A stretch of 64,000 nucleotides of DNA from Eledone cirrhosa (taxonomy: Eukaryota): positions 282,596,001 through 282,660,000 of the forward strand of contig OZ024743.1 of assembly GCA_964016885.1 (NCBI GenBank), written 5' to 3'. The first letter of the stretch is position 1. Every line of letters begins with the position of its first letter. This document shows positions 24,301-37,400 of this stretch, one piece after another. The notes below the pieces were generated by a model. That model worked only from the letters and a program-made list of their open reading frames with translations, was not told where the DNA came from and did not search any database. Position numbers and translations under genes: made by a program.

Positions 24301-27300
24301 GGACTGTGGCTACAACACCACCGTCAAGTTTGTTTTCGTTTTTTCTTTTTAACCTAGTACTTTTTCTAGTACTTATTTTATTTATCTTTAAAAAGAATCA
24401 GAAGGAAAGTTGACCTTGGCACAAAGAGGCATAATTCAGACTGAATTAATACTACATGATTTTGTTTGATGTACCTATTTTGTTAGGCCATCCTGTGCTC
24501 ACACACACTTAATAGGCTTGCACAAAGTTTCCTCCCACAGCTTTAGTCAACTTATCATAGAAGACACATATTTAAAGTGCCCTGCAATGGTATTGAACTA
24601 CATGGTTGCAATATATGACTATGAATCTGAAATCCTGAATCTTAAATCAAAGGATAAAACACTAAAAATAATCCTAGAAATTATATCAATAGCTAGTTAG
24701 TAAATCCAATCTTTAAACTAAGAAAAGTTAAATTACCATATTTAAATATGAAAACAAAGCAATTTAGAACTCTAAACTTAGCTCCTGTTGTGTGTATATG
24801 CTAAGTTAAGATGGAGATGATGATGATGAATGGATATGAATGAAGCTGAGTGAGCAAGACAACACTCAGTACCATGCTGACATTCTTGGCATTTTCCAGA
24901 TTTCTCTTTATCTCCATTGAATCTGCTGTCATTTTCGCTGCAGACCCTTTCTGCTTTTCAAAGTCACTGTGATAATGAATCTGCAGAAGTCAATAAATTT
25001 AACTTTAACCCTATCCCAGGATTCAAAAACATTTAGGCAACTTCAATTTTTGACATTATAAGAATTTATTTTTGAAATTGAGCACTATTTGCTTTTATAT
25101 ATACTTTTCACATTATATAAATTGTAAGATACTATATAAGGAAACTTTGAACCATAGAAATAATATTCTTTTAAGAGGAATTTTTTAAAAGATATTTTTT
25201 AAAAGAAATATATAACAAAATATTTAAAATTGAAAAGAAAAAAAATCATTCAAGAATATTTTAATTAAACAAAGAAATTTAATATAAAATAGTGCATTTG
25301 TTTGGTTACTGTGCAATGACATGAATTTTACAACTGCAAGGAAATAAGTGCAGATTTCTGCTAGCACCGGTAATGCTTAAAACAAACATTCAAAGTTTGC
25401 AAAAGCTATAAAAGTGTGGTGTGAGGAATCAAGCAGTTCTGGGATAACAAACCAACCACAACTTACCATTTAACACTTTAGCCATGTAAAGTTTCCTACA
25501 TGAAAATTTCCAGCAAGTGTTATTTAATATTCCTAATACTAGTGGTTGTTGAAGACATCTATTCTATAGGTGGTCACAGTACTGTGGGATAAGGTATTTG
25601 ACGAATCAAGAGCATATCTTACTAGACTGATTCCCAACCATTTTATTACCAAGGAGCCTGCTCATTTAAATGAAAGGCCTGTTTACTAAACAAGCTACCG
25701 AAGACCCAGTAACTACCTTTATAGACCCCCCAGTGGTCTATGAAGCAGGTTGTGGACTGCTGTCCAACTAAATTGAATTCCCATTTGGAATTGTTTCACA
25801 TATGTTGCTAATGCCCTTGAAACATATTTTACTTGTTTTCCTGTATAATTCTGATGACTAATGTAAGAAGTCATTTGCACTAATTAATGACTGGAAGATC
25901 TTATTTCTTGGACGGCTTTAATTCAATGGAACCAGTATATCTAGGTTCCTAGTGCTCCTCTGGAAAAGCATGAACTTCTGCCCATGAATAAAATCTATTA
26001 CTACACATTTATAATACAGGTTGGTTGGTTCATATAGGATTTATATAGAATTTGCTTCCCAGCACAACATAGTCATGCAGAGATTGTAAAAAGAGATTAA
26101 AAACTTTAAAATTCTAATTTAAGCTCACACAGCAACAAAATACAGAGCAAATAACTTTTAATTTAGCAATTAAACAAAACTCAAGTATCTGCACCCAAGA
26201 TGGTAGGTACTCTAATATTGTCATATTACCCATTGAGATTAGATTTTGAACATTTAAATAGCTTCTGCTCCTCATCAAATTGACAACTATAAGTGATAAC
26301 TTTAAGACAATGAAATGTGTTGGGATCTGCCTAGCCAATCATCAAATGCTAAGTTTAAGGATGTGTATTCTAAACAAAACTAAAAGGTAAGACATTTTTT
26401 CTTTTAAAACAAAGCTAAACCAATAAAAAAAACAGGAGTTAAGCAAAACATTGAGACATGTAAAACTACTGTTTTAAGACCAATCTCTACAAACAGAATA
26501 TGGTTCTAGGTGGATTGATATCCAGCTCAGTTGCTACAGTTTCTAATTGATGCTAAAATAGATTTAAGCAGCTTTAAAATCTAAGTGTTGTCTTCAGATT
26601 ACTTTTATCACCCAAAACTTTAAAATGCTCCAGAAATGAGCTTAAAAGAAAAAATACACCAGATTTCAGGAAATACTAAGTTTACACCAGGTAGGATCTA
26701 ATGAAGTTAATTTTTTTTTTTTTGTTTTTTTTTTTTTTGGGGGGGGGGGGGGGGGAAGAAATCCTATTATTTAATAAGAATAAAATCAATTTTTTTTTTC
26801 ATTTAATAATTAAAATCTGACTTGATAATCTGGTTCTTAAGAAATATATGTTATGAGGTAAACTTATGATTTCTACAAAGACTTTTAATAAAAGTAGTTC
26901 TCTTTCTCTCTCTCTGAACAGCAATTTCAAAGTATATAATATAATTTGTATTTTCTTCATACCTAGCAACTAAGCTGTACTAATATCAGCTTAGCAAACA
27001 AAATTGTAGAAATCATACATTTAATTTTCCTGTAACATCAGTACTAAAAATATTCAGATGCTCCAGTTACTTTTTGTTTAACACATAAATAAGTTCATGT
27101 TTTCTTTGTTTTAATGGAAGCTTAGAATTCCATCATTGTGTATGAAATGGTTGTTATTCACAACTGTCTGAACCTGACTCACCTACAACAATCATATTGT
27201 AATTATAGACCCTTTATAATATGTGAGAGAGAGTCTGCAGTGCTAAGACCGAGGAGGCCACTACCCATGGGAGTACGAGAGAGAGAGAGTGTGTGTGTGT

Positions 27301-37400: not shown

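Follow-up and report, generated by a model that had tools for sequence, protein, structure and literature searches.

The 64,000-nt stretch of Eledone cirrhosa DNA analysed here (the window) raises the question of whether the exons upstream of a Lasp nebulin-repeat exon make up an expanded array of actin-binding modules, as had been predicted from the letters of the sequence, and whether such an array is an invention of cephalopods comparable to a small nebulin.

Cassette exons and the Lasp gene

Seven cassette exons (5 of 105 nt, 2 of 108 nt) were found on the minus strand of the window. Each has AG at its acceptor and GT at its donor, a frame free of stops and phase 0 on either side, and encodes one 35-36 aa nebulin module. 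A pattern count for such exons across 20001-40000 returned 7 in the real sequence vs. 0 in each of 100 block shuffles. The pattern count and Pfam recovered all seven phase-0 exons at the places upstream of the Lasp repeat exon that the original prediction had given. The cassettes of E. cirrhosa Lasp were numbered c1-c8, and the window carries c2-c8. Features are given below in the order of the gene; positions without a contig prefix are those of the window.

G000:C4:282803250 and 282721714, same strand as the array: LIM exons, upstream of the array
G000:C4:282677866-282677762, same strand as the array: eighth cassette c1, outside the window
37296..37400, minus strand: cassette c2 (Z), 105 nt, one 35-aa nebulin module
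36476..36580, minus strand: cassette c3 (Y), 105 nt
34667..36475, minus strand: intron copy 2, 1809 bp, contains a 567-bp segment absent from copy 1
34562..34666, minus strand: cassette c4 (C), 105 nt, chimera of X and Y
33321..34561, minus strand: intron copy 1, 1241 bp
33216..33320, minus strand: cassette c5 (X), 105 nt
30219..30323, minus strand: cassette c6, 105 nt
28238..28345, minus strand: cassette c7, 108 nt, 36 aa, YQSDF variant
24873..24980, minus strand: cassette c8, 108 nt, 36 aa
20642..20816, minus strand: core Lasp exon, 175 nt, phase 0 to 1, downstream of the cassettes
16338..16544, minus strand: optional proline/glycine-rich linker exon, 207 nt, phase 1
11912..11947, minus strand: likely optional linker micro-exon, 36 nt, phase 1, weaker match
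9965..10012, minus strand: optional linker micro-exon, 48 nt, phase 1
G000:C4:282581960-282581784, same strand as the array: SH3 exon, 98% to its orthologue

Each cassette starts with x-x-Y and ends with S-x, and therefore consists of the closing half of one Pfam repeat followed by the opening half of the next. The S and the Y, and their spacing, were kept across every junction (S-x-x-x-Y-H/Q). The D and K of the SDxxYK motif of PF00880 were not kept across cassette junctions, and YH is also found in the fly core and in other Lasp cores. Nebulin was the best Pfam family for 7 of 7 cassettes; as the Pfam repeat is split at the exon junction, only 3 of 7 were over the cut-off singly. The motif YHSDF, which had been described as common to the repeats, was present in six of the seven window cassettes, and the exon at 28345 reads YQSDF.

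Genome search placed two LIM exons, exon 3 (first half-repeat), c1, the seven window cassettes, the core exon and the SH3 exon in this order on one strand over ~220 kb, which confirmed the predicted identity of the gene as Lasp. The core exon comprises the latter half of one repeat together with the final one, and its translation is identical to the LIM-and-SH3 proteins of Octopus sinensis and O. vulgaris. By all three domain features the gene is a LASP-class member, with a single N-terminal LIM (LIM exons upstream; Pfam LIM 5-58 in orthologues), a first nebulin repeat at residue 67 (repeat 67-94 in orthologue P0012, with matching exons in the genome) and a C-terminal SH3, for which the best PDB matches were the SH3 domains of LASP1, nebulin and nebulette. 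Among the best 60 of 294 matches in the PDB search, LIM and SH3 were the only domains returned. The two lysine/serine-rich micro-exons (11912-11947 and 9965-10012) have an identical donor flank and similar acceptors, and may be a duplicated pair.

No cassette beyond the eight was found with an HMM of 49 modules in the window and further stretches of the genome, including all 44 kb from the end of the window to past exon 3. Pfam Nebulin, proposed earlier as a check on the joined translation, gave 2 stretches in the cassette-free orthologue P0012 and 7 in the spliced five-cassette orthologue P0005; the E. cirrhosa gene can therefore encode 2 to 10 repeats. Of the expected total of at least 8-9 modules, the multi-repeat array stood, and the figure is replaced by a maximum of 10, with c1 outside the window.

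Other elements were noted in and around the locus. The stretch 32174-32351 is a very high-copy short interspersed repeat (depth in millions in 3 of 4 runs; also in a related organism), and similar text recurs near 49670-49830 and 58095-58200. Several fragments of a reverse-transcriptase retroelement, read by eye on both strands (43500-45050, 50220-54600, 61080-62220 and 62580-64000), sit among long AT-rich satellites within the large intron that precedes the array. The stretch 13590-14480 is GC-richer with similar inverted ends and looks like a decayed DNA transposon (read by eye). A second repeat gene at G000:C4:252.34-252.39 Mb was rejected, as the weak matches there were a 48-bp satellite (G000:C4:252340001-252390000, L010-L014; 130.7 copies in L010 alone, 93% matches). 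The satellite has long open frames on both strands and no DNA likeness to the cassette exons, and its 16-residue translated unit gave a weak score against half a Lasp module.

Cassette use in relatives

Splicing of E. cirrhosa Lasp is predicted from relatives, and most of the octopus models used are automatic predictions. Across 33 octopus protein models the cassette content ran from none to six, and single modules were skipped. All cassettes together were found in 0 of 33; the longest O. sinensis models have six and are without the c7 orthologue. For the other cephalopods, four contigs of 1.1-1.4 kb (P0018, P0020, P0011, P0008) encode whole Lasp proteins and are therefore spliced. These transcript-sized contigs, which resemble cuttlefish Lasp in sequence, comprised two without a cassette, one with c1 only and one (P0008) with c6-c7-c8. 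The differing subsets in octopus models and transcript-sized contigs agree with the prediction that subsets are joined in frame to the core exon. Two gene models (P0007, P0172) are LIM-less, as is nebulette, a muscle-restricted isoform with a first exon of its own, and may be truncated predictions.

The cassettes could also be interchangeable variants used one or few at once, with specificity for actin, myosin or alpha-actinin, and the long arrays mostly products of annotation. At most three cassettes were seen in the transcript-sized contigs, one of the 33 octopus models, plus an additional partial model of O. bimaculoides, has the c7 orthologue, and fly repeats 1 and 2 are described as differing in preferred partner (available text of PMC4137052), all of which would fit. 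This reading is nevertheless improbable, as six cassettes run in a row in most O. sinensis models and in one O. bimaculoides model, and P0008 has the c6, c7 and c8 orthologues together.

History of the modules and the chimeric exon c4

Searching with the LIM-side region gave 246 proteins; the best 120 were listed and 47 were split into modules. Arrays outside the cephalopods are known from protein models. In these 47 proteins, extra 35-residue modules lie directly after residue 83, a site common to gastropods, bivalves and cephalopods. There were 8 extra modules in Haliotis rufescens, 4 each in Ostrea and Saccostrea, 3 each in Crassostrea, Mytilus, Pecten, Argopecten, Pinctada and Gigantopelta, and 1 each in Aplysia, two clams, the annelid Owenia and the nemertean Tubulanus. 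The representative search gave at least 7 modules in Patella caerulea and 1 in Lineus. Extra modules numbered 0 in the listed models of Lingula, Physella, Bugula, two other Haliotis species and four arthropods. Oyster and mussel isoforms differ by whole modules, which suggests one-module exons as in octopus.

Two further models are of note in their own right. P0172 (Patella caerulea) has at least 7 modules with a nebulin-like YK motif and is without LIM, and is either a truncated prediction or a nebulette-like isoform. Tubulanus polymorphus P0094 and P0174 are isoforms with different single extra modules at one site, which suggests alternative cassettes in nemerteans.

The Lasp array is mollusc-wide and repeatedly amplified; it is neither a cephalopod innovation nor a new kind of system. 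The cephalopod-specific invention held by the original prediction was largely overturned by equivalent arrays in gastropods and bivalves, which are found in RefSeq models and have YHSDF in common with the cephalopod ones. Molluscan arrays are thus already in public automatic annotations, one of them named nebulin-like. No paper on molluscan Lasp repeat arrays came up in the literature searches, although Fujita et al. 2021/2022 and Bjorklund et al. 2010 may mention them. What survives of a lineage-specific expansion is the part of the array that is coleoid- or octopod-specific. YHSDF was counted in 19 of 27 cephalopod modules and in 9 of 48 other modules, and on these counts it does not mark local amplification, as had been supposed.

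The trees, built on 35 columns, are weak. The 104-row tree set 62 cassette rows (one nemertean, the rest molluscan) apart from core and chordate modules (92/88, unstarred), and in it own clades were formed by coleoid c6-c8 (100/92) and Haliotis c2-c4 (99/97). Cephalopod c1 grouped with Haliotis and Gigantopelta c1 (99/90 in the 47-row subset, 95/77 in the 104-row tree), and the Patella modules formed their own clade (100/99, 47-row subset). Octopus c1 has 21-22 of 35 residues in common with Haliotis/Gigantopelta c1 vs. 19 of 35 with the best module of its own gene; octopus modules in general have 16-25 of 35 in common with other molluscan cassettes, and at best 15 with their own core exon. The window cassettes were identical to chordate modules at 10-15 of 35 residues (11 rows from sturgeon and coelacanth, a small sampling) vs. 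the 16-25 of 35 to other molluscs, in keeping with the predicted distinctness from chordate nebulins. The molluscan and chordate arrays are consistent with parallel growth, and the best reading of these comparisons is one or few old molluscan cassettes, followed by separate amplification per lineage.

Under full convergence, an extension of the original prediction, the ancestral molluscan Lasp would have had two repeats, and the cephalopod, abalone, limpet and bivalve arrays would have arisen separately in the same permissive intron. A single clade of all cephalopod cassettes was not rejected in an AU test (47-row subset; p=0.149), the Patella modules have YK and their own clade, and module counts range from 0 to 8 among molluscan models, as this account would allow. 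The grouping of cephalopod c1 with gastropod c1 (99/90), the closer likeness of octopus modules to other molluscan cassettes than to their own core, and the separation of the 62 nearly all molluscan cassette rows from the cores make it unlikely. One or few old cassettes with later amplification per lineage was therefore kept as the preferred history.

For the most recent step of this history, the exons at 34666 (C) and 36580 (Y) were compared and differ at 2 of 105 bases. Exon C is the same as exon X at two informative 5' sites (nt 1-2) and in the acceptor flank, and agrees with exon Y in the donor flank and, from nt 45 on, at 6 of 6 informative sites. The introns flanking C have 4 substitutions in 1236 aligned bases (99.7% identical), three small indels and one 567-bp indel. 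The chimera of X and Y together with the near-identical introns is what unequal crossing-over of X with Y, somewhere in nt 3-44, would leave, and exon C is likely a very recent product of such a crossover. In a contig from a related organism, exon X runs directly into the intron with the 567-bp segment, which is the unduplicated arrangement.

If exon c4 and its intron were an assembly artefact (a false tandem duplication), the true cassettes in the window would be those remaining, seven in all for the gene. The near identity of the introns is what such an error would leave, the c2-c5 class numbers three exons in the O. sinensis and O. bimaculoides models vs. four in the window, and among the contig pieces listed none covers the whole duplication. 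Contig depth argues the other way. In run X2, depth was 22-24 in the duplicated parts vs. 11-13 in the unique parts, so that the collapsed contigs were at ~2x unique depth; in run X1, it was 17-19 in the duplicated parts vs. 4-5 and 11 on the two flanks, approximately the sum of the flanks (X1 and X2 are one sample, possibly the source of the assembly). The two intron copies also differ by the 567-bp indel. An artefact is accordingly quite unlikely.

Predicted actin binding and comparison with known systems

The in-frame one-repeat exons of octopus Lasp probably began as one or few extra repeats in early molluscs, were likely multiplied by unequal crossing-over, and through predicted variable splicing would let the protein grip 2 to 10 actin subunits. 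Crossover between neighbouring similar exons would yield a new phase-0 exon, and any subset of cassettes would restore S-x-x-x-Y across the junction. From what is known of the family, each repeat is expected to bind one actin subunit. Close to Z-bodies or adhesion sites, longer isoforms would thereby bind thin filaments or actin bundles more tightly and stabilise them, anchored by LIM and SH3 at either end of the repeats. As ten repeats are too short and lack the super-repeat tryptophan, cassette inclusion would act as an avidity switch through the number of actin contacts, with no filament ruler; the cassettes are unlikely to set thin-filament length.

Actin subunits are spaced 5.5 nm apart, and giant nebulin is built of seven-module super-repeats with a tryptophan motif. 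At this spacing, at most 10 repeats would span ~55 nm vs. ~1 µm for nebulin, and there were 0 tryptophans in all modules, hence no super-repeat motif; neither the super-repeats nor the filament-like length of giant nebulin was found. A mini-nebulin in which repeat number sets thin-filament or Z-disc length is thus very improbable, even though the length of nebulin follows that of the filament in some vertebrate muscles (available text of PMC9140763) and nebulette exons are also typically in-frame cassettes (available text of bioRxiv 10.64898/2026.10.05.756842), as even nebulette is said in the former to fall short of the filament span.

The avidity switch accords with the description of nebulin repeats as binding actin 1:1 and stabilising filaments (available text of PMC9140763). 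Two-repeat fly Lasp is described as stabilising thin filaments and linking alpha-actinin at the Z-disc edge, with no ruler (available text of PMC4137052). In the available portion of PMC2761545, the LIM domain together with repeat 1 of vertebrate Lasp-2 is enough for actin binding, and extra repeats may therefore add little.

Octopus Lasp was compared with other nebulin-repeat proteins. With nebulin and N-RAP it has the 35-residue PF00880 repeats in common, but it has far fewer repeats, no super-repeat motif, and both LIM and SH3. The top-scoring long proteins in the representative search are presumably of the nebulin or N-RAP kind. With the LASP class (Drosophila Lasp, vertebrate LASP1, C. 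elegans F42H10.3), LIM, nebulin repeats, a variable linker and SH3 are common; the first repeat of the cassette-free orthologue starts at residue 67 as in the class, and the class differs in having two repeats vs. up to 10 in octopus Lasp (available text of PMC3305314). In that text, every non-human animal Lasp surveyed has two repeats, no mollusc is among the proteomes named, and nebulin-repeat proteins other than Lasp are confined to chordates (PMC3305314). Vertebrate LASP2/NEBL (lasp-2 and nebulette) is like octopus Lasp in that extra repeat exons, in frame (available text of bioRxiv 10.64898/2026.10.05.756842), come after the LIM-side exons and before a final repeat of the core-like kind; in our comparison the sturgeon last module grouped with molluscan cores. 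Nebulette has >20 repeats and is without LIM (available text of PMC3305314), whereas the long molluscan models keep LIM, and the HMM gave eight cassettes in the window and the 44 kb beyond, to past exon 3. The closest counterparts in array, site and module length were RefSeq/GenBank molluscan models such as XP_036359930.1 (Octopus sinensis), XP_052824630.1 (O. bimaculoides), XP_046357634.1 (Haliotis rufescens 'nebulin-like') and KAK6180829.1 (Patella caerulea), from which E. cirrhosa differs by one more exon of the c2-c5 class, from recent duplication.

A wider reading, held tentatively and at somewhat less than even confidence, is that molluscs have a second, unrecognised multi-repeat nebulin-like family inside Lasp, parallel to that of chordates and in the same intron. 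It would have been amplified separately in coleoids, abalone, limpets and bivalves, octopod growth would be ongoing by the birth of chimeric exons, and muscle-type splicing would tune thin-filament stabilisation. Those molluscan Lasp models that have 3 to 10 repeats depart from the two-repeat rule of the survey, as far as its available text states it (PMC3305314), and are natural intermediates between Lasp and nebulette. The E. cirrhosa locus likely shows a repeat-adding event at almost zero divergence, and opens to test the gain in actin binding per extra nebulin repeat and the differences in Lasp splicing among molluscan muscle types.
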